In this document: piece after piece, positions 29,507 to 60,617 of the stretch
Position numbering within the stretch: the stretch's first letter is position 1
How the letters are laid out: every line of letters begins with the position of its first letter
UHGV virus genome: UHGV-1421865
DNA: 64,000 nt
DNA from: a virus
Direction: 5' to 3' (one strand)
Notes under the pieces: generated by a model
What the model saw: the letters and a program-made list of their open reading frames with translations, nothing else
The model's database searches: none
What the model was told of the DNA's origin: nothing
Made by a program: the position numbers and the translations under genes

Positions 29507-29523
29507 ATAAATAAATCAAAAAT

Positions 29524-35269: not shown

Positions 35270-36628
35270 CTAAAACTGTTTTGTTAATACTGTATTAAGT
35301 CTCTTCAAATCGGCGATGTACATTTCTTCGATTGTTTGTTTCTTAATACGTTTTATTTCTGCTTCTAGTTCTTTGTTGTCTTTTAATAGCTTGTCGTACT
35401 CTTCTTTTGTACACCGCACCATGGAGGTATGAACAAGTTCCCAGAGTAGCTTGTGCTTGTCCATATCGACCTTAATGTCTTTCTGTGGACGGTTGTTGAT
35501 CTTCAATTTGTTCTTTATAATAAGATCTATAAAACGAGCGAGGTCTGTATTCTTGTTGAGTTTCTTATTTAAGATGTCCAACAACAATGTTTTACGCTTC
35601 TTATAAATAGACAACCGCCAGTTTACAAAGTATTCTGTCAATTCATAGATGTTATTGAAATAACGAATTTTCTTGTTCTCGTCTAAGACGTACAACTGGT
35701 CGGACGGTACTTGTTTCGTCAGCTTCAGTGTCGTTCCAACGTATTTGTCGACTTGCTTGTCTGTCAATTTAGCCTTACCGGTACTGGTGAACTTGATTTT
35801 GTAGCTAATGTTAGAACCACTACTATTATTGACATAGTCCTTAACGATACCTTTCTCAATTTGTTTATTAAGGATACTTTCGAAATCGTCGAAGTCTATA
35901 TTATACGGCAACTCTGTTATTTCTAGTGTTGTCGAATTTAGTACTTTGTAAGTACCAGAACACAACCATGTGTTGTTTTCTTTATCGAACAACCATGCCG
36001 ACTTAGGAATATCTCTTATATAAGGACTAATCGTCGGTTTCTTCTTCGATTTTTCCAGGACGGCGATACAGTATTTTGTAACGTCGACAGGATTGTACGA
36101 CATACAGTAGAATCTATACCCCGGCGCCATTCCTTCTTGCATATTACAAATCACAGTCGGAATAATAGGAAGAAAACATTCCGGTTCGACATACTGTCCT
36201 TCGTCGTAGATATATTCCAACAACTCGCTGTCTGTTTTCCATATATCGGCATATTCTGATAACGACACATAAAGATAACGCGGTGCAGAAATTGCCTTCG
36301 GTGTTCGTAGCGTTCCGTTTTGTCCGTCGACGTACAGCGGATTTAGATTGAATCTAAACTGTTGCGACAGGGTGATGATAGTACCGTTCAGTGAGGCGTC
36401 ACCGTGAGGGTATAACGACAGGTTGAGTGTATCGCCCGACAGGTTGAGTAGTTTTTTCGAAGCACCGGATTTTAATCCACCGTTAAACGCAGCGTGCATG
36501 ATCTTTCGAGCACCCGTCTTTAAGCCGTCTCGTAGGTCGGGAAGGGCTCTGTTCTGGAGCACATAAAATACGTACCCTTTGTATTCTTCTGAAAGGAATT
36601 TAGATATATCTTTAGATTGTTTTGTCAT
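35270..36628 (-). CDS. type II DNA topoisomerase medium subunit (GyrA-like N-terminus; T4 gp52-like)
   Basis: RALPDLRDGLKTGARK and LYPHGDASL signatures of the topo II A subunit. Confidence 0.8.
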   Translation of the reverse strand: MTKQSKDISKFLSEEYKGYVFYVLQNRALPDLRDGLKTGARKIMHAAFNGGLKSGASKKLLNLSGDTLNLSLYPHGDASLNGTIITLSQQFRFNLNPLYVDGQNGTLRTPKAISAPRYLYVSLSEYADIWKTDSELLEYIYDEGQYVEPECFLPIIPTVICNMQEGMAPGYRFYCMSYNPVDVTKYCIAVLEKSKKKPTISPYIRDIPKSAWLFDKENNTWLCSGTYKVLNSTTLEITELPYNIDFDDFESILNKQIEKGIVKDYVNNSSGSNISYKIKFTSTGKAKLTDKQVDKYVGTTLKLTKQVPSDQLYVLDENKKIRYFNNIYELTEYFVNWRLSIYKKRKTLLLDILNKKLNKNTDLARFIDLIIKNKLKINNRPQKDIKVDMDKHKLLWELVHTSMVRCTKEEYDKLLKDNKELEAEIKRIKKQTIEEMYIADLKRLNTVLTKQF

Positions 36629-36906
36629 ACTTTACTTCTATTGTGCCGTCTGTGATCATAAAACATGTTGTGTAGGTATCTTACGCTACTAGTGTCCCAT
36701 TTATCTATTTTGATGTTACCGACACAAAGACCTTCGAATAAGTAAGACATGTCTGTGATCTTAGATGTGTCGATAAAGTTCAAATCGGCATCGGGACCTT
36801 GAAGTTCCAACTCATGTTTTATAAGAATCTTCAATGCTAATTTTGACGTCGGTCTAGGTCTATACAGCTTTGTAGATGAAGTGATGTGTATTGCCATATA
36901 AATCAA
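36625..36906 (-). CDS. short DUF285-family protein (N-module plus one repeat)
   Basis: MIYMAIHITSSTKLY...DADLNFIDTSKITDMSYLF...WDTSSV. Confidence 0.5.
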   Translation of the reverse strand: MIYMAIHITSSTKLYRPRPTSKLALKILIKHELELQGPDADLNFIDTSKITDMSYLFEGLCVGNIKIDKWDTSSVRYLHNMFYDHRRHNRSKV

Positions 36907-37343
36907 ATAATAGGTCTATTATTAGGTTCTAATTTATGTGCACCAAAGAACATTCCTGCTTTAGATCTTAATTTAGAAAGATTCCAGTTTGATAGATCAC
37001 AATTGAATTCACTACAGTTACGGAACATTTGGTGTGTATCTTCCAGATTCGATACGTCCCATCTTGAGATGTTACTATTGAAATGTCGACAATCGTGAAA
37101 CATATAGCGCATGTTTTTCACATTAGAGACATCCCAGTATTCGATTTTGATGTTTCTGATTTGAAGATTTTCAAATAAATAACACATGTCTGTCATCTCT
37201 GATGTGTCGATAAAGTTCAAATCAGCATCCGGACCTTGACGTTCAATTTCTTGTAATATAAGCGCCTTTAATGTATATCGTGATAATACTTTAACTTTGT
37301 ATAGTTTTGAAGATGACGTAATATGTAGTGCCATATAAATCAA
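36903..37343 (-). CDS. DUF285-repeat protein
   Basis: MIYMALHITSSSKLY...; C-terminal HKLEPNNRPII identical to next gene; 50-bp junction repeat. Confidence 0.6.
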   Translation of the reverse strand: MIYMALHITSSSKLYKVKVLSRYTLKALILQEIERQGPDADLNFIDTSEMTDMCYLFENLQIRNIKIEYWDVSNVKNMRYMFHDCRHFNSNISRWDVSNLEDTHQMFRNCSEFNCDLSNWNLSKLRSKAGMFFGAHKLEPNNRPII

Positions 37344-37780
37344 ATAATAGGTCTATTATTAGGTTCTAATTTATGTGCGTACAATAACATACCGTCTGAG
37401 TATTTTAGATTAGACAAGTTCCAACTCGATAGATCACAATTGAATTGTTTACAGCCGTAAAACATCTCTGTCATGTCTGTTACATTCGACACGTCCCAAT
37501 CACCTATACCGGCGCAATTTAAGTCGGTACAGTCATAAAACATGTGTGACATATTTTTGACATTTGAAACGTCCCACTCGTCGATTTTGATGTTTCCTAT
37601 TTCATAGCCTGTATTCTCAAACAAACCACACATATCGGTGACAAGTGATACGTCAATATGGTTCAAATAGGCATCCGGACCTTGTGTACGTAGTTCTTGT
37701 TCTATTATAGCCCGTAATTCCCCCCAAAGTATAGGTTTTATAACGAGATGTTTAGTCTTTGAAGTAATCTTGATTGCCAT
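37340..37780 (-). CDS. DUF285-repeat protein
   Basis: MAIKITSKTKHL... plus repeats; tandem duplicate of 36903..37343. Confidence 0.6.
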   Translation of the reverse strand: MAIKITSKTKHLVIKPILWGELRAIIEQELRTQGPDAYLNHIDVSLVTDMCGLFENTGYEIGNIKIDEWDVSNVKNMSHMFYDCTDLNCAGIGDWDVSNVTDMTEMFYGCKQFNCDLSSWNLSNLKYSDGMLLYAHKLEPNNRPII

Positions 37781-38325
37781 TATACTTTGAATTTTGGTCT
37801 AAACTTCTTCGGTAGCGCACTACATTTTTCAAAAATGTTATTTATGCGTTTTACTTTTGATACATTCCATCGTGATATGTCTGCATTAAATATCTTACAA
37901 CAATAAAACATATTACTCATCCAAATTACGTTCGAGACATCCCATTCTGAAATATGTGCATTAAATTGTTTACAGCAATAAAACATTGCGCTCATTTCTG
38001 CCACTTTTGATACATTCCAGTTTGACAGATCTGAATTGAACTGTGTACAGCCATAAAACATGTACGACATATTCGTTACGTTTGAAGTGTCCCAGTAGTC
38101 GATTTTGATGTTTCTAGGTTTAAGTTTATTAAATAACGAAGACATGTCTTCAATCAACGACGTGTCGATGAAATTTAGATCTGCATCGGGACCTTGCTGT
38201 TCTAACTCTTGTTCTATCAACAAATGTAACTCCTCTTTCGATGTAGGTCTCTGTATCGCAGATCTAGACTTTGATGTGATTCGTATACGCATAAATTTAG
38301 ATATTATACATAATAATACAATCAA
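37780..38325 (-). CDS. DUF285-repeat protein
   Basis: N-module ...ELHLLIEQELEQQGPDADLNFIDTSLIEDMSSLF plus about 6 repeats. Confidence 0.6.
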   Translation of the reverse strand: MIVLLCIISKFMRIRITSKSRSAIQRPTSKEELHLLIEQELEQQGPDADLNFIDTSLIEDMSSLFNKLKPRNIKIDYWDTSNVTNMSYMFYGCTQFNSDLSNWNVSKVAEMSAMFYCCKQFNAHISEWDVSNVIWMSNMFYCCKIFNADISRWNVSKVKRINNIFEKCSALPKKFRPKFKV

Positions 38326-38870
38326 ACCAACGACAGTAATCCGTTGACGATACCTTCATCTATTACCGAATTTACACATTTAGATAATACATCAATAGTA
38401 GCTCTGTATATCTTGTTCCTTTTCGGTGTAAATCCAGCATGCTTAGGTTTGTTCTTATTATCAAATGAACTACAAATAGCGAACATAAACCGTACATCGG
38501 TGACCTTACTCATGTTCCAACTGCGTAGGTTACAGTTGAAGTTATGACAATTCATAAACATCCCGTACATATTCCGCACGTTGTGGACGTCCCAATTAGA
38601 TAAGTCACAGTTGAAACTAGGACAGTTATAAAACATGTTCGACATATCCCTCACATTAGAAACGTCCCAGTAGTCGATTTTGATATTTCTAATGTAAAAG
38701 TGATGAAATAAAAAAGTCATGTCTTCAATATCGGACACGTCGATAAAGTTCAAATCGGCATCTGGACCTTGACGTTCTAATTCCTGACGTATCAGTTCTT
38801 GTAGCTCTTCTTTCGTAGTCGGCTTGGGTATTTTTAAGACTCTAGAACTAGATGTGATATGTAGTGCCAT
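38322..38870 (-). CDS. DUF285-repeat protein with distinct C-terminal tail
   Basis: MALHITSSSRVL...; C-terminal about 45 aa (DNKNKPKHAGF...LLSLV) shared with 39510..40052. Confidence 0.6.
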   Translation of the reverse strand: MALHITSSSRVLKIPKPTTKEELQELIRQELERQGPDADLNFIDVSDIEDMTFLFHHFYIRNIKIDYWDVSNVRDMSNMFYNCPSFNCDLSNWDVHNVRNMYGMFMNCHNFNCNLRSWNMSKVTDVRFMFAICSSFDNKNKPKHAGFTPKRNKIYRATIDVLSKCVNSVIDEGIVNGLLSLV

Positions 38871-38883
38871 AGTTGTATTTTTT

Positions 38884-39489
38884 TTATAACATAAACATAA
38901 ACAGTTGTGGTTTATGATCTGGTTCTATACCACAATTAAGAAATGTACCTGTACAATTTGCACTGTTACATGTAATAAACCAGCTGGAAAGGTCGCCGTT
39001 GAAAATTGTACAACCTTCAAATGTATTATTTAGGGATCTGACATTGGACACTTGTGGTCCCCATTCAGACAAACTACAGTTTAATTTGAAACACTCGTAA
39101 AATGTATTATCTAAGTTCTGTACGTTTGATACATTCCAAAAGTCAAGACCAATACCTTCGAAGTTGTGGCAACCGGAAAACATAGAATCCATCTTTGTGA
39201 CATTGGATACGTCCCACTTAGAAAGATCACAATTCAGTCCAGAACATCCCAAAAACATACCCTCCATATCGGTCACATTGCTGACGTCCCATTCATCGAT
39301 TTTGATATTTCGAATGTAAAATTGGTGAAACAAATACGTCATGTTGGTGATCAAAGATGTGTCTATGAAATTAAGATCAGCATCCGTACCTTGACGTTCT
39401 AGTTCATGAAATATCAACGTAATTAGTTCACGTTTGGTTTCAGGTCTTATTTTGAGTGCTCTTGTCTTAGATGTTATGTGAATTGCCAT
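38884..39489 (-). CDS. DUF285-repeat protein
   Basis: MAIHITSKTRAL... plus about 7 repeats. Confidence 0.6.
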   Translation of the reverse strand: MAIHITSKTRALKIRPETKRELITLIFHELERQGTDADLNFIDTSLITNMTYLFHQFYIRNIKIDEWDVSNVTDMEGMFLGCSGLNCDLSKWDVSNVTKMDSMFSGCHNFEGIGLDFWNVSNVQNLDNTFYECFKLNCSLSEWGPQVSNVRSLNNTFEGCTIFNGDLSSWFITCNSANCTGTFLNCGIEPDHKPQLFMFML

Positions 39490-39509
39490 AATAATAACAA
39501 TTATAAGAA

Positions 39510-40052
39510 TTACATTAGTCCTAGTATTTTACTAGCAATAGCGTTATCAATAGATTTATTGATAGTTGTAGTCATTTCATCGACTATTTCTTTATCTATA
39601 CTTCCGAGTAACTTTATACCTGGATGATTCGGCTTGTTATTTTCGTCAAAAGATTTACACATCGATAACATAAAGTTTACATTCCTTACACTTGACATGT
39701 CCCAACGTGATAAATCACAATTGAATTCATAACAATTCATAAACATAGCTTGCATGTTTGTCACTTTCGATACATCCCAATATGATAAATCACAGTTGAA
39801 TTTGGTGGCACCGCTAAACATCCCTTCCATTGTTGTCACGTTTGAAGTGTCCCAACTCTCTATCCCGATGTTCCTTATATCGAAATAATAGAATAACCAA
39901 GACATATCGGTAATCAACGACGTATCGATAAAGTTCAAGTCAGCATCCGGACCTTGCTTATATAGTTCTTTATCTATAAGTTGCCTAAGTTCTTTTCTGG
40001 TGGTAGGTCTAAATACCGCCAATTTAGAATCTGATGTGATGTGTATTGCCAT
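39510..40052 (-). CDS. DUF285-repeat protein with C-terminal tail like 38322..38870
   Basis: MAIHITSDSKLAV...; tail DENNKPNHPGIKLL...ILGLM. Confidence 0.6.
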   Translation of the reverse strand: MAIHITSDSKLAVFRPTTRKELRQLIDKELYKQGPDADLNFIDTSLITDMSWLFYYFDIRNIGIESWDTSNVTTMEGMFSGATKFNCDLSYWDVSKVTNMQAMFMNCYEFNCDLSRWDMSSVRNVNFMLSMCKSFDENNKPNHPGIKLLGSIDKEIVDEMTTTINKSIDNAIASKILGLM

Positions 40053-43467: not shown

Positions 43468-43522
43468 GTGCGTTTAAGTTCAATGAATAAATATATAAGT
43501 CCTCCAACAAATACGATACCGA

Positions 43523-43855
43523 TTACATAAGCAATACAACCGGAAGGACATAGTTGTTATCGTTGGCAACTCTCTGCCTCGTATGCAACGGAATGCTTAC
43601 ACCACCACCGTAAGTCTGGTAAGTCGAGAAACTGACCGGCATGTTATAAGGCATATAATCAGGATAATATGGCTTGATGTTCATATACAAGTCATCATCA
43701 CCCATTATTTCGTCACAGTCATTTTGAGTCATTTCTATACCAGCTACAATACCGGTACAGTTTTCTTCGGTAAGATTCCAACCATAAAGTGCGCACAGTC
43801 CAGAAACAACAATTGCTACAACAACGATGGTTTTGAGATTCATCAACTTAGTCAT
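43523..43855 (-). CDS. putative lipoprotein
   Basis: Signal peptide with VSGLC lipobox-like cysteine. Confidence 0.4.
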   Translation of the reverse strand: MTKLMNLKTIVVVAIVVSGLCALYGWNLTEENCTGIVAGIEMTQNDCDEIMGDDDLYMNIKPYYPDYMPYNMPVSFSTYQTYGGGVSIPLHTRQRVANDNNYVLPVVLLM

Positions 43856-43872: not shown

Positions 43873-44058
43873 TTACAATACGAAATTCAAAAGTCCGAAA
43901 CCGACGACCATCAAGATAATACCACCGATCATACCTACAACAGAAAGACCGTGCACAAACTGGTCCTTCTTACTGAGAAACGGTACAGGACGAATGGAGC
44001 TGAGTGACAGAACTGCCAACAAGGCAATTGCAAACAACGGGAAAATCATAATCATCAT
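43873..44058 (-). CDS. small two-TM membrane protein (family member 1)
   Basis: 61 aa; two hydrophobic helices; upstream mini-ORF ATGTTTCACCGCTCG... Confidence 0.45.
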   Translation of the reverse strand: MMIMIFPLFAIALLAVLSLSSIRPVPFLSKKDQFVHGLSVVGMIGGIILMVVGFGLLNFVL

Positions 44059-44144
44059 GATAAAATAGAATTTGTGCTCTTGTACGAGCGGTGAAACATA
44101 GTTGATTCAATGCAGATATAAAGCGTTACTATGAATTGTCATGT

Positions 44145-44315
44145 TCAGAAAATTACATATACAAAACAGAAACCTACACCCACAGTACCGAGGATAATGC
44201 CAAGACCGGAGAGGACGTACAGGAACACTTCTTCATTTTTGAGGAATTCCGACATACGAACAAAACCAAGTACCAGAGATACCAACAAACCGATTACAAA
44301 CAGAATGAGTGTCAT
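44145..44315 (-). CDS. small two-TM membrane protein (family member 2; 56 aa, manually found)
   Basis: MTLILFVIGLLVSLVLGFVRMSEFLKNEEVFLYVLSGLGIILGTVGVGFCFVYVIF; preceded by conserved cassette. Confidence 0.4.
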   Translation of the reverse strand: MTLILFVIGLLVSLVLGFVRMSEFLKNEEVFLYVLSGLGIILGTVGVGFCFVYVIF

Positions 44316-44520
44316 GATAGAATGTATTTTGTGCTCTTTTTAAGAGCGGTGAAACATTGTCTTTTTGATTACAATACAAAGATAGCAATTTATTTTGAAC
44401 TGTAAAACATTAAGGCAGTTTTTATTTCACCTTTAACGTCTTTTGACGTTTGACTCAATCAGTGTATCGACTGTACTACCGTAGATGGTTCAAGACACAG
44501 TAAATAAATTACTATCGTCT
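44316..44520 (-). repeat. conserved upstream cassette (copy 1) of small membrane-protein genes
   Basis: ACGTC..GACGT hairpin, then GTTCAAAATAAATTGCTATCTTTGTATTGTAATC, then ATGTTTCACCGCTCTTAA. Confidence 0.55.
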
Positions 44521-44649
44521 TCATCTTCGTTACGAGACTTAAAATAGTCCCAACTCGAAACATCAATATCGTCTGTTAATGGTTTATAATGACCCAGTTC
44601 TTGACATTTTATTTCAATCTGAATGTCTTTGAATGTTACCATAATAGAG

Positions 44650-44841
44650 TTATTTTGACAATAACAAAACTACGAGACAAGTGAAGATGATAAGAGGACC
44701 GGCAATTATACCGACACGAGACAGAACGTCCATCCAAAAGTCTTTCTTTAGAAGTGTTTCTTTGGGCAGAACAGAAATCGAAATCAAAAAGAGACCGACG
44801 AAAAATCCAAAGAACACGGACATAATCATAACCATAAGCAT
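44650..44841 (-). CDS. small two-TM membrane protein (family member 3; start at MLMVMIM)
   Basis: 63 aa; upstream CTCTATTATATC-ATG context like other members. Confidence 0.4.
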   Translation of the reverse strand: MLMVMIMSVFFGFFVGLFLISISVLPKETLLKKDFWMDVLSRVGIIAGPLIIFTCLVVLLLSK

Positions 44842-44854
44842 GATATAATAGAGT

Positions 44855-45040
44855 TTACGTGTTAAACACAAAAATAAGGAGATAGAAGAGGATAGCGCAG
44901 AGCGTCCCAAAACCACCCAACATAAAAATTTCAGTCTTGCTGAACATGTTGTTTCCATATTTGATGTTACCATGAATCCAAATGATGCAAGGGGTAAAAC
45001 CAAGAATAACGGCACTGATAAACAAAACAATTTGGTCCAT
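44855..45040 (-). CDS. small two-TM membrane protein (family member 4)
   Basis: 61 aa; preceded by cassette GTTCAAAATAAATTGCTATCTTTATATTGTAATC. Confidence 0.45.
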   Translation of the reverse strand: MDQIVLFISAVILGFTPCIIWIHGNIKYGNNMFSKTEIFMLGGFGTLCAILFYLLIFVFNT

Positions 45041-45171
45041 AATAGAATAACGTCTTTTTGATTACAATATAAAGATAGCAATTTGTTTTTTACACAGAAA
45101 AATTATGTAACTGTTTTAACGTCAGTTCACTGACGTAGTCAGTTTAATGTCAATTAACTAACGTAGATGGT
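45041..45171 (-). repeat. conserved upstream cassette (copy 2, partial)
   Basis: TTAACGTCAGTtcaCTGACGT hairpin plus GTTCAAAATAAATTGCTATCTTTATATTGTAATC. Confidence 0.5.
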
Positions 45172-45387
45172 TCAATTGCAGTTACAAAGTTCAGCACCAT
45201 AAAAAATAACCACAAATCCGACAATCGTAAAACAAAGTCCCAAAATAGTAACAAAACCAATCCAGAAGTTGCTGAAGACCTTACCACCATTTACCTTGTC
45301 CACATTATCGGAAAGCATAAGAGGAAGCGGTGAAAATGAAATCATAAGCCACATGATAAACAAAACAACCTTAAGAAGCATTGTCAT
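45172..45387 (-). CDS. small two-TM membrane protein (family member 5)
   Basis: 71 aa; two hydrophobic segments. Confidence 0.45.
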   Translation of the reverse strand: MTMLLKVVLFIMWLMISFSPLPLMLSDNVDKVNGGKVFSNFWIGFVTILGLCFTIVGFVVIFYGAELCNCN

Positions 45388-45600
45388 AATAGAATAGAGT
45401 TATGCTCTTGTAAGAGCGGTGAAACATTATCTTTTTTGATTACAATATAAAGATAGCAATTTATTTTGAACAAATCACCTGTTATATAGACTTTAACGCT
45501 AGTTAGACTACCGTGAGGTATCTTAACACCAGTAAATCAACTATGTCGATTCATTGACATTAAACCAGTGTAGTTGGTTCAACGTCACTCGACTCTGTCT
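45388..45600 (-). repeat. conserved upstream cassette (copy 3)
   Basis: ATGTTTCACCGCTCTTACAAGAGC (GCTCTTgtaAGAGC hairpin) plus GTTCAAAATAAATTGCTATCTTTATATTGTAATC. Confidence 0.55.
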
Positions 45601-45663
45601 GACGACTACATAATAAAAATAAGACACCTCAAATTGAAGCATCTTATTTTTGTAGACTGATAG

Positions 45664-46494
45664 TCATCGTTTGATATTCCACATCGGTACTTCTGAACCA
45701 CCTACAAGTACATCAATGTTAGCACCGTCCTTCTTTTCAATTACGTCCCATTGGCGAAGTTGGATAAACTGTGAAGGTGACAGATTCATTGCGTTCATAT
45801 AGGCCTTGTCGGCAATAGCACGGGCATTTTCTGCCTTGGCGCGGGCATTTTCCATCTCAACTCGTTTCTCTTGAGTCTGCTTGGCCTGGATAGCCGCGGC
45901 CGTCTTGTTCATCTCGTGGAGCTGCTCCGAATTCGGCATCACACGGTCGGTAACAACTTGATTGATTGTAATAGGGAACTCGCCTTGTTTCTTGGACAAT
46001 TCCTTAATATAATTGTCCATACTTGTCTTCAGCGTATTGTCGAACTTGGCAAGTACCTCACGGTTACTCATCAAATCAAAAGGAGAATAAGTCGATACCA
46101 ATTCACGGACCTTGTTGCGAAAATATGGCTCGATGAATGTATTATAATAGTCCGCTCCGTAATTCCTCAACAACTGCGGCGTATGCCCTTTCTTGATTTG
46201 ATAAACAAGATACATGTTCACATCCAAAGGGGTGTTGTCGTTACTGAGCAAGTCGTCGAACTTAAATTCCTTCTTTTGAGGTAGGATGTTAAACTTCACC
46301 GCCTGGGTCGTAGGTGCATACATTGTGAAATTATTAGCCGGCTCGTCGAGGACCTTTGTATCGCCGAAGAAAATAGGTCGTGCCTTAAAGGCTACTTCTT
46401 CGTCATATTCTGGGTTCGTACAACTTACTGTTACGAGGCTAAGTGCCGCTAGTGCCATCGCACCGACACTGAAAATAATTTGTTTGATGTTCAT
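45664..46494 (-). CDS. lipoprotein with C-terminal coiled coil (possible SPFH/band-7-like)
   Basis: Signal MNIKQIIFSVGAMALAALSLVTVSC; C-terminal QAKQTQEKRVEMENARAKAENARAIADKAY. Confidence 0.35.
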   Translation of the reverse strand: MNIKQIIFSVGAMALAALSLVTVSCTNPEYDEEVAFKARPIFFGDTKVLDEPANNFTMYAPTTQAVKFNILPQKKEFKFDDLLSNDNTPLDVNMYLVYQIKKGHTPQLLRNYGADYYNTFIEPYFRNKVRELVSTYSPFDLMSNREVLAKFDNTLKTSMDNYIKELSKKQGEFPITINQVVTDRVMPNSEQLHEMNKTAAAIQAKQTQEKRVEMENARAKAENARAIADKAYMNAMNLSPSQFIQLRQWDVIEKKDGANIDVLVGGSEVPMWNIKR

Positions 46495-47312: not shown

Positions 47313-48029
47313 TCAGTAAGGCATCGTCGGAAATTGTTTATAAAATACTGTATAAACATCTAACTTCGTATTGTCAAATATGCCGTCCATTCTCTTGATA
47401 TTCGATATATCCCAATTTTCAAGACCCTTACCTCTAAACAGTATTGCACCTTCAAACATCCAACGCATGTCCACTACTTTTGATACATTCCATCTTGAGA
47501 TATTACCGTTAAATACCTTCGCTTTGTTGAACATCATGTACATGTACATTACATTACCGGTATCCCAATTTTCAACACAGATTCCAGTGAACGATACTGC
47601 GCTACAAAACATACGAGACATATTCGTCACATTACCGACGTCCCATTTTGAAAGATCACCGTTGAATGACATTGCATCCTCAAACATCTGACTCATGTTC
47701 CATACATTACCGACGTCCCAAGTTGAGATGTTACCAATAAACATGTCACAACCATGGAACATTCCACTCATGTCTTCAACATTCGAAGTGTCCCACTCGT
47801 CGATTTCGACATTTCTAACACCAAGCCCCTTGAACAACTCAGACATATCGGTGATCAACGACGTATCGATGAAATTAAGATCGGCATCCGGCCCTTCCCT
47901 CACCAGTTCACATATTATCAACTCACGTAGTTCAAGTTTCGATGTTGGTTGGGATCGCTGTAAAGATTTAGACTGTGATGTAATACGCAGTCTACTGGGT
48001 CTATTATGTATAGCCATGTCAAACAGCAC
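47313..48029 (-). CDS. DUF285-repeat protein (N-module type MAIHNRPSRLRITS)
   Basis: N-module plus about 8 repeats. Confidence 0.6.
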   Translation of the reverse strand: MLFDMAIHNRPSRLRITSQSKSLQRSQPTSKLELRELIICELVREGPDADLNFIDTSLITDMSELFKGLGVRNVEIDEWDTSNVEDMSGMFHGCDMFIGNISTWDVGNVWNMSQMFEDAMSFNGDLSKWDVGNVTNMSRMFCSAVSFTGICVENWDTGNVMYMYMMFNKAKVFNGNISRWNVSKVVDMRWMFEGAILFRGKGLENWDISNIKRMDGIFDNTKLDVYTVFYKQFPTMPY

Positions 48030-49384: not shown

Positions 49385-49849
49385 TTACCAAGGTAAGCTA
49401 CAATCTAATTCGGTAATTTCAACCCCATCATAGAGTATAGAGCTATAGCTACCTCCACCGTCATCTGAATCACAATAATGCGTCTTCGTAGCCAGTTTGT
49501 CTTGTACACGAGCGTCGATTACCGAATTGATTTGCTCTTCCAATTCCGAAACAAACAACTTACGGTTGTCAGAAAGGAGCGTCTTAATAAGGCCCTTAGA
49601 CCAGTTGTCGGTTTCTTTCTTGTACTCTTCGAGTGCTGCCAACTTAGTCGATTTCTCTTCTACTTCAGTCTTGCACGACTTCAAATCGCCTTCACACTTA
49701 GCCAATTGTTCTTCGAGCTTGATAACACGTTCAATCAGCTGGTCTTTCTTAAACTTCTTGTAAAATTCTTCGTTGGTCATTTTCTTGTTCTTTTTTTTAT
49801 TACAATACAAAGATAGCACTTTATTTTGAAGAAGACAAGTATTATACAT
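49385..49849 (-). CDS. coiled-coil hypothetical protein
   Basis: 154 aa; heptad-like LEEQLAKCEGDLKSCKTEVEEKSTKLAALEEYKKE; preceded by partial cassette at 49790..49870. Confidence 0.4.
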   Translation of the reverse strand: MYNTCLLQNKVLSLYCNKKKNKKMTNEEFYKKFKKDQLIERVIKLEEQLAKCEGDLKSCKTEVEEKSTKLAALEEYKKETDNWSKGLIKTLLSDNRKLFVSELEEQINSVIDARVQDKLATKTHYCDSDDGGGSYSSILYDGVEITELDCSLPW

Positions 49850-49870
49850 CTTTTAACGTCAGTATTAGTA
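49790..49870 (-). repeat. partial copy of conserved upstream cassette
   Basis: TTCAAAATAAAGTGCTATCTTTGTATTGTAAT plus TTTAACGTC motif. Confidence 0.45.
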
Positions 49871-49956
49871 TCTTTTAACGATATACATACATAAATCAAA
49901 AAAGTACCGTCTGTTATAATATATAATAACAAACGATACTTTGTAGTATCACTGAG

Positions 49957-50991
49957 TCACTGAGTAATCACAATAGCTACTCGATTAGACGTTTCATTTA
50001 AGGCACCGTAACCTACGACTTCCTTTACCGTAACACCTTGTGCTTTCAGGAATCGCGCAACAACCTCTGCACGGCGATATGAAAGCATATCATTGTGTTC
50101 CTTCTTACCTTCAGGGGAGGCATAGCCGTATACATTCACCGTACCTACGATGTTCTTCAATACGTTCTGTACCTCTTCAGTAAGGTCATAACTGTTCTTT
50201 GCGAAGAACACGACGTGCTCTGTCGTGGTTTGTACTGTCACGGTTTGTACCACTGTGTCTTTTACTGACAAGTCCTTTACCACCTCTCGTACTTGTACTT
50301 CCTGGTGACGTAGTTGTTCACGAAGACGTGCAATAGTCGACTCGTAGGTTTCAATGTTGTATTCCTTGAAATAATGCGTACCGTTGCTCGTCTTAAAATG
50401 ATAGGTATAACCCACCGTCAGTAGATACTGGCTCCCATGTCGGTTAAAAGCAAGCTGCGAGTAACGATTACCAGGCTCCGAAAGGTTCCAGAAAATCTCA
50501 GGACGGACATTGATAGTATGTTTCTTACTCTGCCCGAGATTAAAAGCGATGTCAAGACCGGTCTTCGCCCCCAAATAATTGTTGTACTTATCGCTTTGAT
50601 GAGGCGTATAGTTGTGGATCCACCCGGTACCGGCAACGGCGCTTACTTCGAAAGTACGCGGCTTGTTATTATAACCGCAGAATAGGTTATTGAGATTAAC
50701 AAGACCGTTAAGTCCCAAATACGACGTCTTCACTGTATTATCGCTCTTGTTAGTACTGAAGAAGGCGAGACCTTCGATTTCTGCACTATAAACAGGAGAG
50801 AATTGCTTGCCCACCCGTAGAGACAACACAGGACTATCGGGTGATACTGTATTTAGACCTTTGTCAGTGGCGACACCACCGTTAAGACCTACATAAACAT
50901 TATCAAAAGGCTTTGTAGTCTGGAGTGACGTCTGAGCGCTCGCACCGAGCATCGTCATCAAACCCAAAGCAAAAATAAACATTTTCTTCAT
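49957..50991 (-). CDS. OmpA-family outer membrane protein (signal peptide, beta-barrel, OmpA C-terminal domain)
   Basis: MKKMFIFALGLMTMLGASAQ signal; C-terminal FAKNSYDL...GYASPEGKKEHNDMLSYRRAEVVARFL peptidoglycan-binding motif. Confidence 0.7.
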   Translation of the reverse strand: MKKMFIFALGLMTMLGASAQTSLQTTKPFDNVYVGLNGGVATDKGLNTVSPDSPVLSLRVGKQFSPVYSAEIEGLAFFSTNKSDNTVKTSYLGLNGLVNLNNLFCGYNNKPRTFEVSAVAGTGWIHNYTPHQSDKYNNYLGAKTGLDIAFNLGQSKKHTINVRPEIFWNLSEPGNRYSQLAFNRHGSQYLLTVGYTYHFKTSNGTHYFKEYNIETYESTIARLREQLRHQEVQVREVVKDLSVKDTVVQTVTVQTTTEHVVFFAKNSYDLTEEVQNVLKNIVGTVNVYGYASPEGKKEHNDMLSYRRAEVVARFLKAQGVTVKEVVGYGALNETSNRVAIVITQ

Positions 50992-51125: not shown

Positions 51126-51668
51126 TCACGAAATCATCATTGCCAAAGTTTTCTTACGTCGCTCTACATGTCCCGTAGACCGTACAGCATGCGACCGAAC
51201 TGCAGCGCAAACATATTTCATTTCTTTATCGTTACGGCAACGACTGAGCCGAGCATAGAATTTAGACCGACGGACAGAACCTTCGCCGCAGTTGAACAAC
51301 AGATCACCAAGACCGTCGATAAATTTCTGTGAGAACTTGTGAGTTTTATTCTTCAGTAGCTTATTGATCGTCATGTTCACAATTGCCATATCCTCCACAA
51401 AGTAGCGTTCTGCTTGTGCCTTAGAAATCACTTGTCCTGGTCGTACCGATTTACTATGGTGACCGTAACCGATAGACCAACCACCTGCATCGCGATACGC
51501 TTTCAACGACAGTCCTTCGTTGCGTTTAATGAACGATTCACCCTGTGCCGACACTTTGTATGTTGCATAGGTAGGTACTGTACTGACCACCAACAAGAGT
51601 ACTGTCAAAATAACTGTCCAAAAACTTTTAAGATTCATGTCAAATTGTTTGTTAATGGTGACTGACAC
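51126..51668 (-). CDS. T4-type (GH24) lysozyme with N-terminal hydrophobic segment
   Basis: ESFIKRNEGLSLKAYRDAGGWSIGYGH catalytic region; N-terminal TM-like WTVILTVLLLVVSTV. Confidence 0.75.
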   Translation of the reverse strand: MSVTINKQFDMNLKSFWTVILTVLLLVVSTVPTYATYKVSAQGESFIKRNEGLSLKAYRDAGGWSIGYGHHSKSVRPGQVISKAQAERYFVEDMAIVNMTINKLLKNKTHKFSQKFIDGLGDLLFNCGEGSVRRSKFYARLSRCRNDKEMKYVCAAVRSHAVRSTGHVERRKKTLAMMIS

Positions 51669-54129: not shown

Positions 54130-54639
54130 TTATATACCTGCCGGTTTTAACGGACGTGTCATTTTTCTACATTTATAGAACATGTCATCTGATATAATCA
54201 AATTAGGCATTTTCCAATTAGATAGATCTGATTTGAATATCGTACAATGTGAAAACATGCCTATTGTATCTATTACACTCTCAGGTCGCCACGACGACAG
54301 ATCAGAATTAAATAAATTACAATCGTAAAACATGTGAGACATAGATTCTACGTTTGAAACGTCCCAACCAGACAGATCACAGTTGAATGCAGCATGTTCA
54401 AAAAACATACTCGTCATGTTCTTCACATTGCTGGTGTTCCACTGGTCGATTTTGATGTTGTGAATAATTAAATATGCAAATAAGTTAGACATGTCTGTGA
54501 TGAGAGACGTGTCGATAAAATTTAGATCTGCATCTGGGCCTTGTTTACTCAATTCGCTAAATACCAAAGATCTAAGTTCGTCTTTTGTTGTGGGTCTTAA
54601 TGTTAATGATTTCGAATTTGATGTGATGTGTATACTCAT
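54130..54639 (-). CDS. DUF285-repeat protein
   Basis: MSIHITSNSKSLTLRPTTKDELRSLVFSELSKQGPDADLNFIDTSLITDMS plus about 5 repeats. Confidence 0.6.
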   Translation of the reverse strand: MSIHITSNSKSLTLRPTTKDELRSLVFSELSKQGPDADLNFIDTSLITDMSNLFAYLIIHNIKIDQWNTSNVKNMTSMFFEHAAFNCDLSGWDVSNVESMSHMFYDCNLFNSDLSSWRPESVIDTIGMFSHCTIFKSDLSNWKMPNLIISDDMFYKCRKMTRPLKPAGI

Positions 54640-54769
54640 TTTACTTTGATATTAGGTATTTTATCATGCGTTTTGAACTACACGTTATTATAATAACTAA
54701 GTATAATAAAAGTGACTTCGATGTTTCCATCAAAGCCACCAAATAATCCACAATTTACACCGTGTATTA

Positions 54770-55780
54770 TCAAGCAAACTCAAACACAACTCTTGTGTTG
54801 CATCGTTTGATCTTACCACTATTGGCGATTTCAAATCCAGGACGTCCCTTTGCGACTTCAAACTCCTTTACTTTAACCTTTACAGGCTGACCGGGTTTGT
54901 AGTTCACGAGGTCGTACGAGGATACTTCCAAAAAGCCGGTGATACAGCGTTCTTCCAACTCAACGAAGATACCACACTTCTTTTGTGACTTGATAACACC
55001 ACTCACCTTACCTTCGATAACAGCACGCGGCTTCTTTGCTTTGTCGTCGGCTTTCGTAGACTCTACCAGTTTGTACATTTCCAACATACCGTTGTACTGA
55101 AGCAATTTCTTTCGAGAACAGAGTAGTACGTTCGTCATCACACCGTCGATACGGTATTCAGAGAAGCTGTCGCTGAGTACATCGACGTACTGTCCTACCC
55201 ACCGTGCGAAGTCGCTTTCTATGTTCAACACAATTTGTGAACCGGGAACAAAGATAGGCTGCGTGTAGACGTTATCGCTGAGCGGTTCGAGACTGTCGAT
55301 AAGCATACTGCCGATATAACCACCGCGAACAAGACGGTCCAGGCGAACAGTGCGCATTGCACTGTAGTCGAAATGTTCCAGCCAGTACTTGTAGTACGCA
55401 TTCTTGATCGATACGTTGTACTGACCATGTACATTACTAAACGAACGAACCTCAAACATCACTTCACCGTCCGTCGTTTCGAGATAGTGCTTAAACTTCT
55501 CCTGACCGTAGAAATTATCGTTAGCAAAGATGATCTCTGAAACACCGGGTACTTCCAGAATAACACCGGACTTGTTGATCTCTTTAACCTTACCGGTATA
55601 AACCTGCCCCATTTCCAACGTAACAGGATTTACTACCCGTACATTTTTAAGCTTAATAGAATAAGCATCACAAAAAGCCTCGTTAATGGACTTTTTAGCA
55701 TACTTTTTTGTGTTTGACTTGATACGATCTAAGTCGTTGGCACAAAAATCATCATTTGGTGTTGCTGTTACAACTGCCAT
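54770..55780 (-). CDS. S1 RNA-binding domain protein
   Basis: Two S1-like OB segments (GQVYTGKVKEINKSGVILEV; IEGKVSGVIKSQKKCGIFVELEE...GFLEVSS). Confidence 0.45.
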   Translation of the reverse strand: MAVVTATPNDDFCANDLDRIKSNTKKYAKKSINEAFCDAYSIKLKNVRVVNPVTLEMGQVYTGKVKEINKSGVILEVPGVSEIIFANDNFYGQEKFKHYLETTDGEVMFEVRSFSNVHGQYNVSIKNAYYKYWLEHFDYSAMRTVRLDRLVRGGYIGSMLIDSLEPLSDNVYTQPIFVPGSQIVLNIESDFARWVGQYVDVLSDSFSEYRIDGVMTNVLLCSRKKLLQYNGMLEMYKLVESTKADDKAKKPRAVIEGKVSGVIKSQKKCGIFVELEERCITGFLEVSSYDLVNYKPGQPVKVKVKEFEVAKGRPGFEIANSGKIKRCNTRVVFEFA

Positions 55781-55931
55781 ATATTTTTTATTATGCTATA
55801 TGATAACTATTGTAAGGTACCGACGTCTATAAATACCTTAACATAGCTATCATATAACGGATTGAAATTAAAAACTATTGTGTAGACGTCTAAGCTATAT
55901 ATATAATATATTAAAACAATAAATTGACACA

Positions 55932-56401
55932 TCAGAACGGTCTCAATTGCGGCCAATTTAATTTGCTTGTATCTAATGCACGGCAGTTGTCAAACATACC
56001 AGTTATACCAATCAAATTCCTCGTGTCCCAAACAGACAGGTCACATTTGAAATCAAAACAACAACCGAACATTCTATTCATTCTCCTCACATTCTTTGTG
56101 TTCCAAGTAGATATATCAGTCATAAGCATATCACAACCCATAAACATCCCGTCCATATCAGTGACATTGCTAACGTCCCACTCGTCGATTTTGATGTTCC
56201 GAATATCCAGTTTGTGAAATAATCCGAACATGTCTGTGATCTCTGATGTATCAATTACATATAACACGGTAGTGTTATTAAGTTCAAGTCGGCATCCGGA
56301 CCTTGACGTTCTAATTCAGATCTTATTATAGACTGTAATTGTTCTCTCGATGTAGGTCTCACATAAAGTGATCTTGTATTAGATGTTATGTGAATTGACA
56401 T
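55932..56401 (-). pseudogene. DUF285-family gene disrupted by about 23-bp palindromic insertion
   Basis: N-module MSIHITSNTRSL...QGPDADLN then frame broken by TACATATAACACGGTAGTGTTAT; repeats resume in another frame (track ORF 55932..56267). Confidence 0.5.
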
Positions 56402-56414
56402 AGCTATTTTAATA

Positions 56415-56903
56415 TCATAAAAAGAACCAAACATATATGAAAGTGGCCCAAGTAAGTATACCGATAATCGACTGAACGATAGACATAAACAATGACGTTT
56501 TGTTGGTCGGCTTTATCAGACTGGGTAGTACTAATTGATTACCTTTATACCATTCAGGTAGTTTGTCAAGCGAACAACAAAGATCGAACATGTTACTCAT
56601 GTCTTTCACATTGGATGTGTTCCAAGAACTCAAATCACAATTGAACTCTGTACGAAAAGCAAACATACAAGACATGTTCGTCACATTAGAGACATTCCAC
56701 TGGTCTATCTTGATGTTTCTGACACTGATATACGGATTACAAAACAAAAACGACATGTCGCTGATCTCTTCTGTGTCGATATGATTCAGATCAGCATCTG
56801 GTCCTTGACGTTTCAGTTCTTGTTCTATTATAGACTGTAGTTGTTCTTTCGATGTAGGTCTTATAACAGACGACTTCGCCTGTGAAGTGATGTGTAATGC
56901 CAT
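56415..56903 (-). CDS. DUF285-repeat protein with C-terminal TM anchor
   Basis: MALHITSQAKSS...; tail MSIVQSIIGILTWATFIYVWFFL. Confidence 0.6.
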   Translation of the reverse strand: MALHITSQAKSSVIRPTSKEQLQSIIEQELKRQGPDADLNHIDTEEISDMSFLFCNPYISVRNIKIDQWNVSNVTNMSCMFAFRTEFNCDLSSWNTSNVKDMSNMFDLCCSLDKLPEWYKGNQLVLPSLIKPTNKTSLFMSIVQSIIGILTWATFIYVWFFL

Positions 56904-56937
56904 TATTTGTAGTCGGCTTATACATTCTTATAAAAAT

Positions 56938-57903
56938 TTAACAACCTCTACCACCACAATTGCCCAGAATAGGTTCTGCACTGTAACATTTCGGTTCTCG
57001 TTTCGGTTTGCTGGTTATAGTTACTGTAGTTCGATTGTCTAAATCACGAATCTTTTTAAGATCGATAGACGGGCTGTCCCAATCCAGTTTTATATCACCG
57101 TCTGGGAATATAATGACATCATTCACTTCAAAATAAGTAGAATTGTCTATCAACGTAAACCTTACACCTTTATGAAAGGAGATGGTATTATATCCGTTGT
57201 AGATAACAAGTACTGAATTGCACACATTACAACCGCTTATGTGTACATTTGTACCATATTTATTTCCGTAAGTATCAATTAGATAGCGCGATGTCTTATC
57301 GTCGTTATCCTTCAATGTAAATGTAGACCGTGTACCCGTCGATGTCTTCAGATAGTTTGCACGCAACTGAATATCGAAGTAATCGTAACGTTTAATGTCT
57401 TCGATATATGACAAGAACTTATCGCTATCGACCAAATCCTGAATATGGTCGTTGAGTAAGATATTGATTCGCACCCGCGCATTTGAAGTGACCGCTGCGA
57501 TAATCTCGTCGAAGGTACTAAAATCGGCGTAGTTATGTCCGTAATGACGAGATACATTAAATCCGTCTACAATACCTAAAATCTCATGAAAGATCTCACT
57601 GTCTGGATCGACCTTAGGAAACGACGTGTTTACGTATACATTGTATTTAGTCTTGTCGATACCTTTAATGATTTGGTACAGACTATCCAGATTGTCCAAC
57701 GGTTCGCCACCGGAGATAACAATGTCTTTAATAGACGATACCTTAGAAAGGACACTCTTGATTCGGCTCTTGATCTTTCGAACAGATGCCAGCTCTTTCT
57801 TGTACAGCGACTTTGTCGTACAAAAACTACAATTTTTCGTACAATCCCAAGGTACGAATACCGTCAATGCGAGATTAACTCTACCTGATTTGATGTCAAT
57901 CAT
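56938..57903 (-). CDS. radical SAM enzyme (QueE or activase-like core with about 120-aa C-terminal extension)
   Basis: CTKNCSFC (CX3CX2C) at residues about 21-28, SGGEP SAM-binding motif; Cys-rich C-terminal region. Confidence 0.65.
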   Translation of the reverse strand: MIDIKSGRVNLALTVFVPWDCTKNCSFCTTKSLYKKELASVRKIKSRIKSVLSKVSSIKDIVISGGEPLDNLDSLYQIIKGIDKTKYNVYVNTSFPKVDPDSEIFHEILGIVDGFNVSRHYGHNYADFSTFDEIIAAVTSNARVRINILLNDHIQDLVDSDKFLSYIEDIKRYDYFDIQLRANYLKTSTGTRSTFTLKDNDDKTSRYLIDTYGNKYGTNVHISGCNVCNSVLVIYNGYNTISFHKGVRFTLIDNSTYFEVNDVIIFPDGDIKLDWDSPSIDLKKIRDLDNRTTVTITSKPKREPKCYSAEPILGNCGGRGC

Positions 57904-57906
57904 AAC

Positions 57907-58467
57907 TTAGCACATTTCGAGTTCTTCGAAGATTCTTTCGTAGTCTGTTTTATCTTTAAGACTAGATACGTTCCAATTACGGATAGTATTTACGTCAAAA
58001 CAATAGTTTTCTTCACAAAAAATACCGTCCATGTATTCTACTTTGGACACGTCCCAGTGGCACAAATTAGAATCAAACAGTCCACAGCAATAAAACATAC
58101 TGCGCATGTCCTTCACGTTGCTGACATTCCAGTCGTACAAGTCGGCTCTAAATTCAACATCCTGGAACATACCTTGCATATTCGTGACGTTACTGACGTC
58201 CCACTTATCAATCAGTAGATAGAAACCTTGAAAGTCGTCGAATTTGATAACAAGATCCTTATTCTCCCACGAAATCGCCTGATTGAACACATAAGACATG
58301 TCCGTGATCTTCGATACATCGATGAAGTTGAGATCGATAGTTACAAGACCATATCTGTCATCGTCCTCTTCGATATAGTCATACGCCTCATCGAGTTGAC
58401 GTTGCGTTTCATCTTTGATGATTTGAATGAGCTCTTCTCTGGTTTGTGGTTGATACTTAAATTCCAT
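57907..58467 (-). CDS. divergent DUF285-family protein
   Basis: Degenerate N-module (DLNFIDVSKITDMSYVF) plus 3 repeats WDVSNVTNMQGMF. Confidence 0.5.
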   Translation of the reverse strand: MEFKYQPQTREELIQIIKDETQRQLDEAYDYIEEDDDRYGLVTIDLNFIDVSKITDMSYVFNQAISWENKDLVIKFDDFQGFYLLIDKWDVSNVTNMQGMFQDVEFRADLYDWNVSNVKDMRSMFYCCGLFDSNLCHWDVSKVEYMDGIFCEENYCFDVNTIRNWNVSSLKDKTDYERIFEELEMC

Positions 58468-58563
58468 TGTCGTACATTACTTTAGGCGTTCTCACTTTGT
58501 TTTCTTATATTATATATAGCTTACTTGTACGTACAAATCAATGTGGCAGACTAAAGATCTACA

Positions 58564-59145: not shown

Positions 59146-59169
59146 ATTTTTACTTTTTACACGTTATAA

Positions 59170-59300
59170 CACTATTTTAGACACTACTGTAGACTACACA
59201 AGACAATACAGTAGACCCAACAAGACTGTACAAGACAATACAGTAGACCCAACAAGACTGTACAAGACTCGACAAGACTACACAAGATCAAAAAATATCT
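59170..59300. repeat. iteron-like cluster: ACAAGAC(T/A) repeated at least 7 times, including a perfect 31-bp tandem duplication
   Basis: caagacaatacagtagacccaacaagactgta occurs twice in tandem; motif TAGACTAC also present. Confidence 0.7.
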
Positions 59301-59374
59301 GCCAAGCAAAATAAATAATAGAATTTACTTTACCGTAAAACACAGCTATTTCTTGTCCATCAACTACAGCTCTA

Positions 59375-60228: not shown

Positions 60229-60240
60229 CAGCACAACAAG

Positions 60241-60612: not shown

Positions 60613-60617
60613 TGAAA

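Follow-up and report, generated by a model that had tools for sequence, protein, structure and literature searches.

The UHGV virus genome UHGV-1421865, analysed here as a stretch of 64,000 nucleotides (nt; the window), carries a cluster of five small genes, P1 to P5, for two-helix membrane proteins, interspersed with near-identical intergenic repeats; all features of this locus lie on the minus strand. The comparative data on these repeats are, as a whole, best explained, with a probability of roughly 0.7, by a reusable four-part regulatory cassette in a T4-like phage with Bacteroidota-type signals. The four parts would be an A/T-rich upstream element, GTTAAA(A); a predicted early promoter of host primary-sigma type, its -33 element being TTG and its -7 box TAnnTTTG (here TATCTTT[G/A]); a short 5' untranslated region (UTR) of about 24 nt, which extends to about 55 nt in some copies because an optional module of about 31 nt, AAUGUUUCACC followed by a stem-loop of 4-6 bp, is inserted; and a U/A-rich start region, TCTATTATG, without a Shine-Dalgarno (SD) sequence. 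Three short transcription units (P1; P2-P3-X50; P4-P5) would thereby be expressed, encoding inner-membrane hairpin proteins of 56-71 amino acids (aa). A mini open reading frame (ORF) in the inserted module would be a by-product of the conserved AAUGUUUCACC motif and no conserved coding unit, and the stem-loop most likely works at the mRNA level, where it would adjust expression of the membrane genes by offering a binding site or by affecting stability. As near-identical repeats, the cassettes would also be substrates for recombination, through which small genes could be added, deleted and swapped between phages.

A repeated promoter cassette with an optional leader module

The repeat is defined by the core CTATCTTT[AG]TATTGTAAT, which occurs four times in the window (44368, 45061, 45439 and 49799), always on the minus strand and upstream of an ATG, a count reached in 0 of 100 shuffles. 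A profile built from 40 cassettes, with the window's own four copies among the input sequences, has these four as its sole matches in the window (E 1e-13 to 1e-8; next best 0.18), and all of them lie between 44.3 and 49.9 kb, adjoining small ORFs:

45434..45510 (-): predicted promoter cassette 1, before P1; -7 box TATCTTTA at 45448-45455; upstream element GCGTTAAAG; profile E 6e-13
45056..45129 (-): predicted promoter cassette 2, before P2; -7 box at 45070-45077; no leader hairpin; ATG 37 nt from the start of the box; E 1e-8
44363..44442 (-): predicted promoter cassette 3, before P4; -7 box TATCTTTG at 44377-44384; profile E 2e-11
49794..49874 (-): predicted promoter cassette 4, before a 131-aa coiled-coil gene; -7 box TATCTTTG at 49808-49815; no leader hairpin; E 1e-13

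The conserved sequence GTTAAA...TTG...TATCTTT[G/A]TATTGTAATC agrees with a promoter of Bacteroidota type with a -7 TAnnTTTG box, the consensus of the Bacteroidota primary sigma factor (sigma-ABfr) being -33 TTTG / -7 TAnnTTTG as quoted in Ryan et al. 2020 (PMC7366714). Specifically, TATCTTTG is an exact TAnnTTTG -7 box, and the same 18-mer is found in unrelated IMG/VR contigs, preceded at about 19 nt by TTTG and followed at 20-40 nt by an ATG. When the 40 cassettes of the window and its relatives are aligned, GTTAAAA, cTTG and, 20 nt on, TAyCTTTG all fall in register, and the "GACGTTAAA" segment singled out in an earlier sequence-only reading of this DNA aligns with the nearly invariant GTTAAAA block. 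The copies without a hairpin have their ATG 36-37 nt from the start of the -7 box, so that the predicted 5' UTR would measure about 24 nt, near the mode of 23 nt in B. thetaiotaomicron (PMC7366714). Furthermore, an SD-like motif (GGAG/GAGG/AGGA) precedes 0 of the 78 window genes, as against 6% in the background, and A is enriched at -3 and -11 upstream of the same genes (n=78); this combination of a missing SD and A enrichment has been described for Bacteroidota mRNAs (PMC7366714). From these signals we infer a promoter of host primary-sigma type, rather than a leader, in the main conserved block, forming a distinct class that is probably active early, and a host that belongs to the Bacteroidota.

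With sigma-ABfr promoters the cassettes have in common an exact -7 box, which a TTG precedes at 20 nt in the relatives and in a single window copy, a UTR predicted at about 24 nt, the lack of an SD and an A-rich upstream region. They differ in being conserved over about 75 nt, including the GTTAAAA block, and in a -33 element that is degenerate in three of the four window copies. Conservation this far beyond the consensus implies a phage-specific class, which is likely to be very strong or under special regulation. Elsewhere upstream of window genes, canonical TAnnTTTG boxes are rare. A sigma-70 promoter was also considered and dropped, as a scan gave 28 sites against 23.5 expected, which is no enrichment.

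In more distant relatives (L039, L068, L072, L075, L109 and L112) the cassette of about 75 nt is present in 8-14 copies per 5-15 kb, in the form GTTAATGgAATGTTAAAA, about 10 nt, cTTGCAt, 20 nt, TAyCTTTGCA, and there it precedes unrelated, mostly non-membrane genes. The GTTAATGgAATGTTAAAA segment also bears on the ACGTC...GACGT hairpin that the sequence-only reading had placed at the head of its module. This inverted repeat exists in two copies, with a third that is imperfect, and it aligns with the conserved GTTAATGgAATGTTAAAA of the relatives, which is not palindromic. In context, the inverted repeats ACGUCAGUGAACUGACGU and AACGUCAAAAGACGUU have folding energies of -13.1 and -10.6 kcal/mol, and the aligned segment of the relatives forms no clear stem. 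A terminator scan gave 5 calls against 3.6 expected, again no enrichment.

The fourth cassette had been noticed as a partial module before a gene given as 49385..49849. The promoter core is indeed there, without a leader hairpin; the start of the gene needs to be moved, however, as the cassette falls inside the longer ORF and orthologues begin MTNEEF, so that the coiled-coil gene most likely starts at 49780 (49385..49780, 131 aa).

Two of the cassettes are followed by the leader module. The sequence ATGTTTCACCGCTC has exactly three copies in the window (44086, 44344 and 45414), where about 0.0005 would be expected for a 14-mer in 128 kb, and ATGTTTCACCGCTC...GAGC delimits an optional 5'-leader stem-loop module of about 31 nt:

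45404..45427 (-): leader element 1; ATGTTTCACC and stem-loop GCTCTTACAAGAGC; mini-ORF of 18 codons, out of frame, ending 17 nt inside P1
44333..44357 (-): leader element 2; ATGTTTCACC and stem-loop GCTCTTAAAAAGAGC; mini-ORF just MFHRS and a stop, ending 30 nt before the gene (P4)
44076..44099 (-): leader element 3, in the P4-P5 gap without a promoter core; ATGTTTCACC and GCTCGTACAAGAGC; mini-ORF of 14 codons with an ATGA overlap with P5

As such, the earlier statement that each of the small genes is preceded by a cassette with a mini-ORF holds in full for P1 and P4, which have both the core and the ATGTTTCACC hairpin, and in part for P2 (core only) and P5 (hairpin and mini-ORF only); P3, which starts 13 nt past the P2 stop, has neither and no cassette of its own. 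The mini-ORF was likewise said to end at or overlap the gene start; only the P5 copy ends there, whereas the P1 copy reads on into its gene out of frame and the P4 copy stops short of it.

Across relatives, the leader element was recovered in 22 distinct contexts, with two further stem variants in L063 and L109. It always stands between GTAATCAAAAAGACA and a TTCTATTATG start region and has the invariant flanks AATGTTTCACCGCTC and GAGCAyA; the loop measures 5-7 nt. The module persists well outside the window, also in relatives with coding sequences at pS 0.2-0.6. Scanning IMG/VR for exact copies of the hairpin element returned 0 matches, and the 77 hairpin-pattern matches in metagenomes were mostly chance occurrences in high-GC contigs, with 10 true relatives among them. 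The stem is paired in 92% of cells across 10 distinct variants. L109 carries a double change from U-A to C-G (stem GCCC..GGGC) and L063 a change from C-G to U·G, which pairs only in the sense-strand RNA; the two changes together weakly favour an RNA hairpin. A set of 62 distinct leaders from this class of promoter has a mean folding z of -1.55 and is thus more structured than shuffled sequence; the same class includes several other leader stem-loop classes, some of them covarying. An extra small 5'-UTR hairpin directly after the promoter and upstream of the ATGTTTCACC element, seen in L051, L068, L072, L075, L077, L108, L109 and L112, covaries between phages (AGACaaacGTCT, AGGCaaacGCCT, AGGCtaacGCCT and AGGTaatcGCCT).

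Two simple modes of action of the leader were rejected. A transcription attenuator would need a U-tract after the stem, which is missing, and sequestration of the start codon by the hairpin conflicts with the folds, which leave the start region single-stranded; an alternative AGAG/CUCU pairing on the 3' side of the hairpin is confined to one copy. In T4, RNA hairpins serve as translational operators, for example the gp43 operator, and 5' stabilising stem-loops exist as well. The leader element resembles gp43-type operators in being a short leader stem-loop with a sequence-specific single-stranded flank about 22-25 nt before the start; there is no sequence similarity, and the comparison is offered as an analogy only.

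The small membrane genes and their genomic setting

All five small ORFs announced by the sequence-only reading are present on the minus strand, and a sixth small gene, X50, of which that reading says nothing, lies between P3 and P4:

45172..45387 (-): P1, 71 aa, two-helix membrane protein, subfamily P1/P2; orthologues in L032, L037 and L063, pN/pS 0.22
44855..45040 (-): P2, 61 aa, two-helix membrane protein, subfamily P1/P2; orthologues including the distant L039, pN/pS 0.35-0.56
44650..44841 (-): P3, 63 aa, two-helix membrane protein, subfamily P3/P4/P5; orthologue in L035, pN/pS 0.50
44490..44642 (-): X50, 50 aa, acidic, non-membrane, putatively coding; start 7 nt past the P3 stop
44145..44315 (-): P4, 56 aa, two-helix membrane protein, subfamily P3/P4/P5; pN/pS 0.49-0.62
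43873..44058 (-): P5, 61 aa, two-helix membrane protein, subfamily P3/P4/P5; many orthologues, pN/pS 0.38-0.61

By hydropathy, each of P1-P5 has a pair of hydrophobic segments, about 20 aa each and joined by a short polar loop, so that the proposed tandem family of two-helix proteins is borne out in five of five cases. Measured against shuffles, it divides into two subfamilies, P1 with P2 (z 4.8) and P3 with P4 and P5 (z 4.4-7.1), whose paralogous proteins are 16-36% identical. The coding signal asked of these ORFs is also there: their orthologues retain the frame and both helices, and the ratio of nonsynonymous to synonymous change (pN/pS) is 0.22-0.62 at pS 0.14-0.59. The status of X50 is less certain; an intact orthologue in L035/L036 is accompanied by a pN/pS of 2.1 from few changes. 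A word-indexed search of 5.8 billion proteins returned 21 homologues of the small proteins and an exhaustive HMMER search of 1.84 billion representatives returned 6 clusters (50% identity), all of 56-90 aa and all within this phage clade. By these comparisons, P1-P5 are real coding genes that appear clade-restricted, fast-evolving and accessory.

The homologues derive exclusively from metagenomic contigs, the longest of 207-223 kb, and loci retrieved through the hairpin lie on contigs of up to 326 kb; the relatives measure about 136-326 kb. The metagenome-only homologues and the sizes of the relatives therefore point to a jumbo T4-like phage clade as the source. The T4-type assignment rests on replication genes whose best matches are T4-like PHROG and Pfam families: a split family-B DNA polymerase (PolB), both topoisomerase II subunits, a gp32-like single-stranded-DNA-binding protein and an NAD-dependent ligase. 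When the locus was compared by blastn with 50,697 GenBank phages, none matched; Rfam had no family for the locus or for three relatives, and tRNA searches came back empty.

The cluster is bounded on its 5' side by an envelope-type gene and its terminator:

45664..46494 (-): SPFH/Band_7 lipoprotein gene, upstream of the cluster
45615..45651 (-): predicted intrinsic terminator of the SPFH/Band_7 gene, -27.5 kcal/mol, z -3.5, followed by a T-run; 5' edge of the small-gene cluster

Further neighbours include OmpA-like and other envelope proteins. Given this envelope-gene context and the host-type promoter, the best guess, held with low confidence, is that P1-P5 are early inner-membrane accessory proteins that act in superinfection exclusion or host-envelope modification. 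T4 Imm, a small early inner-membrane superinfection-immunity protein, offers a comparison. P1-P5 would be like Imm-type proteins in size, in their two helices, in their position in a variable region of a T4-like genome and in apparently host-type promoters; they differ in showing no sequence relationship (Pfam, nothing but noise at E<=10) and in forming five tandem paralogues.

Several other features of the window were recorded alongside. Downstream of the cluster, a 110-aa membrane gene (43523..43855, minus strand) looks frameshifted relative to orthologues of 126-144 aa in L032, L034, L035 and L037, and within 43470-43855 (minus strand) a C-terminal transmembrane (TM) segment ending in VIGIVFVGGLIYLFIELKRT and a stop lies just downstream of it in a different frame; the break could reflect a pseudogene, an assembly error or a programmed frameshift. 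A T4-lysozyme-like gene (51126..51638, minus strand) directly precedes an OmpA-family peptidoglycan-binding gene (49957..50991, minus strand), and the two, which follow closely on the gp32-like gene, may form a pair related to the envelope or to lysis. Additionally, a very large expansion of DUF285/BspA-like leucine-rich-repeat paralogues, dozens of genes with a 75-nt repeat periodicity, fills a sizeable share of the 64 kb (for example 26151-30840, 36625-40052, 47313-48017 and 54130-62186).

Gene turnover at the cassettes and the PeSL comparison

Between the Band_7 gene and the conserved membrane gene of 110-144 aa, the gene order is different in every relative examined:

Window: P1, P2, P3, X50, P4, P5
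L032: P1, P2, P4, P5, 41-aa gene
L035: P2, P3, X50, P4, P5, 41-aa gene
L034: DUF723 endonuclease-like gene, apparently frameshifted P2, P4, P5
L037: DUF723 gene, P1, P2, P4, P5

Two of the junctions can be located within cassettes. L035, which lacks P1, has a single chimeric cassette in its place, whose left part matches the P1 cassette of L032 (TATATTTATATTG type) and whose right part matches the P2 leader of L032 (GCTCTTTTAAGAGC), with the crossover somewhere in the shared stretch of about 40 nt. In L032, the unit of P3, X50 and a cassette is deleted, with the junction at the shared CTATC/ATG start motif (CTATC|ATG). The IMG/VR relatives L030 and L031, found through the Band_7 protein, contain no small-gene cluster.

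This arrangement recalls the promoter-early stem-loop (PeSL) cassettes of T4-type phages (Arbiol, Comeau & Krisch 2010, PMC2839356; Comeau et al. 2014, PMC4122927). In that system, RB49 carries ORFan192 between two PeSLs where phi1 has a single chimeric PeSL, whose crossovers fall in the interval from the -10 box to the ATG (PMC2839356; PMC4122927), and recombination between flanking PeSLs yields mini-circles, which were followed by inverse PCR on infected cells or virions (PMC2839356). The present cassettes are alike in being repeated composite intergenic units of an A/T-rich part, a promoter that appears to be of the host primary-sigma type, a short leader and a start codon; in their concentration in a variable region rich in small ORFans; and in having indel junctions within cassettes, with a chimeric cassette where the flanked ORF is missing, as for ORFan192. 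They differ in that the predicted promoter follows the Bacteroidota -33/-7 pattern rather than sigma-70 TTGACA/TATAAT and has no SD, in that the defining upstream stem-loop is weak or absent and replaced by GTTAATGgAATGTTAAAA in the relatives, and in that the prominent stem-loops stand downstream of the promoter, in the 5' UTR. Because of the Bacteroidota consensus without an SD, an upstream terminator that is only putative and the stem-loops in the 5' UTR, the cassettes, although PeSL-like in predicted function and in evolutionary behaviour, are not a textbook member of that system.

Other observations concern the edges and contents of the repeated units. The following repeat marks the 3' end of a gene unit:

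45162-45175 and 44480-44493 (-): TTGAACCATCTACG repeat; a further copy with 2 mismatches at 45569-45582 (-)

It shares nucleotides with the P1 and X50 stop codons, is found again in the spacer that follows the Band_7 terminator and marks the 5' edge of each repeated intergenic unit, and a related copy stands before the gene of 126-143 aa in relatives. In L034 (3933-4274), L037 (4332-4667) and L060, a DUF723 homing-endonuclease-like gene with its own TATCTTTG promoter sits between the Band_7 gene and the cluster. It is partly degraded in L037 (remnants to 5000), its neighbour in L034 is the apparently frameshifted P2 orthologue, and L031 has a 381-aa version of DUF723 type beside a broken Band_7 gene. 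The relatives, but not the window, furthermore contain repeated ORF-less units of about 167 nt, which combine a promoter cassette with a conserved transcript of about 75 nt that has two hairpins and an A-run:

L072: 8461-8564, 7338-7441 and 3093-3196
L068: 11148-11251 and 9030-9133
L039: 3338-3441
Also present in L112, L109 and L075

In the hairpins of this transcript, C-G changes to G-C in 4 of 13 copies and to A-U in 2 of 13. The transcript has no Rfam match and is a candidate multi-copy phage small RNA.

Alternative explanations and implications

Several points weigh against the cassette explanation. The promoter, its timing and its transcription start are predictions from the consensus, and the -33 element is weak in the window, where a clear TTG at 20 nt stands solely at 49815 and the other copies show TTTT, TTTC or TTTG at 15 nt. 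A different motif, CTGATT-N16-18-CTATA.., precedes most other window genes, replication genes included. As CTGATT-N16-18-CTATA(A/T).. it has 10 matches against 0.26 expected from shuffles, 2-45 nt before the first ATG:

2293, 7051, 20655, 26034, 41561, 47316, 53666, 53742 and 60045 (-) and 42567 (+): starts of the CTGATT-type motif, preceding, for example, PolB and topoisomerase II

It is probably another temporal promoter class of the phage, of middle or late type, and its presence before most other genes sets the cassette apart as a distinct promoter class; either of the two classes may be the early one. The upstream inverted repeats have no U-tract and were not called by the simple terminator scan, which leaves the terminator half of a PeSL only putative here. 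The covariation of the leader stem comes from essentially one lineage and was reached by 26 of 500 shuffles. Lastly, the leader element stands almost exclusively before genes of the two-TM (2-TM) family, and its 5' flank AATGTTTCACC is invariant, all third-codon positions included, which a generic cassette leaves unexplained. The sole exception to the exclusivity, a leader before a 127-aa soluble gene at eight loci, looks like a secondary deletion of a P2-like gene. Because of this exclusivity and the invariant flank, a family-specific post-transcriptional function stays plausible. AAUGUUUCACC and its stem-loop may tentatively be regarded as a new cis-regulatory RNA of the 2-TM family, either a translational operator or an upstream ORF of 4-5 codons, coupled with a phage-specific, factor-dependent early promoter class; this is a serious possibility, if well short of probable. 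If true, a phage or host factor would read the leader and so restrain or time the production of membrane proteins that could be toxic.

The sequence-only reading had preferred a leader peptide or translational-coupling device, in which the short ORF of ATGTTTCACC is translated and controls or couples to the membrane gene, for instance by melting the stem-loop. The idea is attractive: the mini-ORF AUG, which lies within AUGUUUCACC, is retained in 18 of the 22 distinct contexts, distant relatives included, its surroundings are A-rich (CAAAAAGACA-AUG), which is favourable for initiation in Bacteroidota, its first four codons, MFHR, are invariant, and one copy ends in the ATGA stop-start overlap with P5. 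The peptide, however, is not conserved in length or stop position. The window copies encode 5, 14 or 18 aa and the L109 copy 8 aa; before P2 orthologues the mini-ORF stays open for more than 50 codons, out of frame with the gene, and a 1-nt indel in L032 and L037 fuses it in frame with P1, so that gene callers give an 82-aa "MFHRSYKSILYSIM.." protein. The ATG (ATGTTTCA) is absent before the P5 orthologues of L032, L034, L035 and L037 even though the CCGCTCGTACAAGAGCA stem-loop is kept. The whole module is dispensable at orthologous genes, being absent at P2 in the window and present there in L032, L035, L037 and L039, and present at P4 in the window and absent there in L035. The leader is conserved at the nucleotide level without synonymous change, the pattern of a nucleic-acid motif and not of a peptide, and its stem-loop does not sequester the main start codon. 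The variable length and stop, the missing ATG and the presence or absence of the module leave the leader-peptide and coupling reading unsupported, and it is now judged unlikely. A further reading, about equally improbable, places the function in DNA, with the palindrome GCTC(T)T..A(A)GAGC as an operator for a phage repressor or as a site-specific recombination or nicking site that mobilises small-gene units. Lying at about +20 to +45 relative to a predicted promoter, the inverted repeat and its invariant flank do occupy a typical operator position, the module is polymorphic as a discrete unit of about 31 nt, and the DUF723 gene has inserted nearby in L034, L037 and L060. Half-sites spaced by a variable 5-7 nt would nevertheless be unusual for a dimeric DNA-binding site and harmless for an RNA loop, the L063 pairing survives only as a G·U wobble that works in sense RNA and is a mismatch in DNA, one copy (44076-44099) lies between cistrons without a promoter, and the crossover maps anywhere in the shared 40-nt stretch, as expected for homologous and not for site-specific exchange.

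The sequence-only reading had also listed holin or antiholin variants among the candidate roles of P1-P5, which would make the cluster part of the lysis system, as a holin/antiholin or pinholin set. With 56-71 aa and two TM helices they do resemble class II holins and pinholins (about 60-70 aa), the T4-lysozyme-like and OmpA-like genes lie about 5.7 kb upstream on the same strand, and there are faint matches to SieB (Pfam, E 0.05, 13.6 bits against a cut-off of 26 bits) and to Phage_holin_5_2, the best Pfam holin match (E 0.21, far below the cut-off), neither of them significant. Against this stand the C-termini (..LLNFVL, ..VYVIF, ..LLLSK, ..FVFNT and ..AELCNCN), whose tails of 0-7 residues carry 0-1 charges and form no charged hydrophilic domain, and the searches of Pfam, PHROGs and PADLOC, which found no significant family for P1-P5 (in PADLOC, 0 matches at E<=1) and no PHROG lysis match. 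The nearest lysozyme, separated by more than 10 genes, does not adjoin the cluster, the predicted promoter is host-like and probably early, whereas holins are late genes, and close relatives differ freely in copy number (3-5 genes, one of them apparently frameshifted), which fits accessory genes better than timing-critical lysis genes. The holin proposal is thus unsupported and unlikely. Far less credible still is the view that the similarity of the cassettes is a functionless residue of recent tandem duplication of gene plus spacer. The whole intergenic unit, from TTGAACCATCTAC to the ATG, is indeed repeated and the genes are paralogous, but about 35 nt of cassette are 97-100% identical where the paralogous proteins share 16-36%, the cassette is kept in relatives with 20-59% divergence at synonymous sites, and in distant relatives it precedes unrelated genes, with conserved blocks that fit promoter geometry. 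These comparative data already contradict it.

The PeSL-like cassette remains the preferred explanation, and with it the idea that such units both regulate and shuffle accessory genes would extend from proteobacterial T4-type phages to large phages with Bacteroidota-type signals, for which the chimeric junction of L035 provides a direct example. The cassettes of about 75 nt are, furthermore, candidate strong and compact promoter/5'-UTR parts for Bacteroidota genetics. Finally, the clade-restricted family of tiny membrane proteins and the leader motif tied to it may serve as targets for work on early host takeover or superinfection exclusion in jumbo phages of gut or rumen type.

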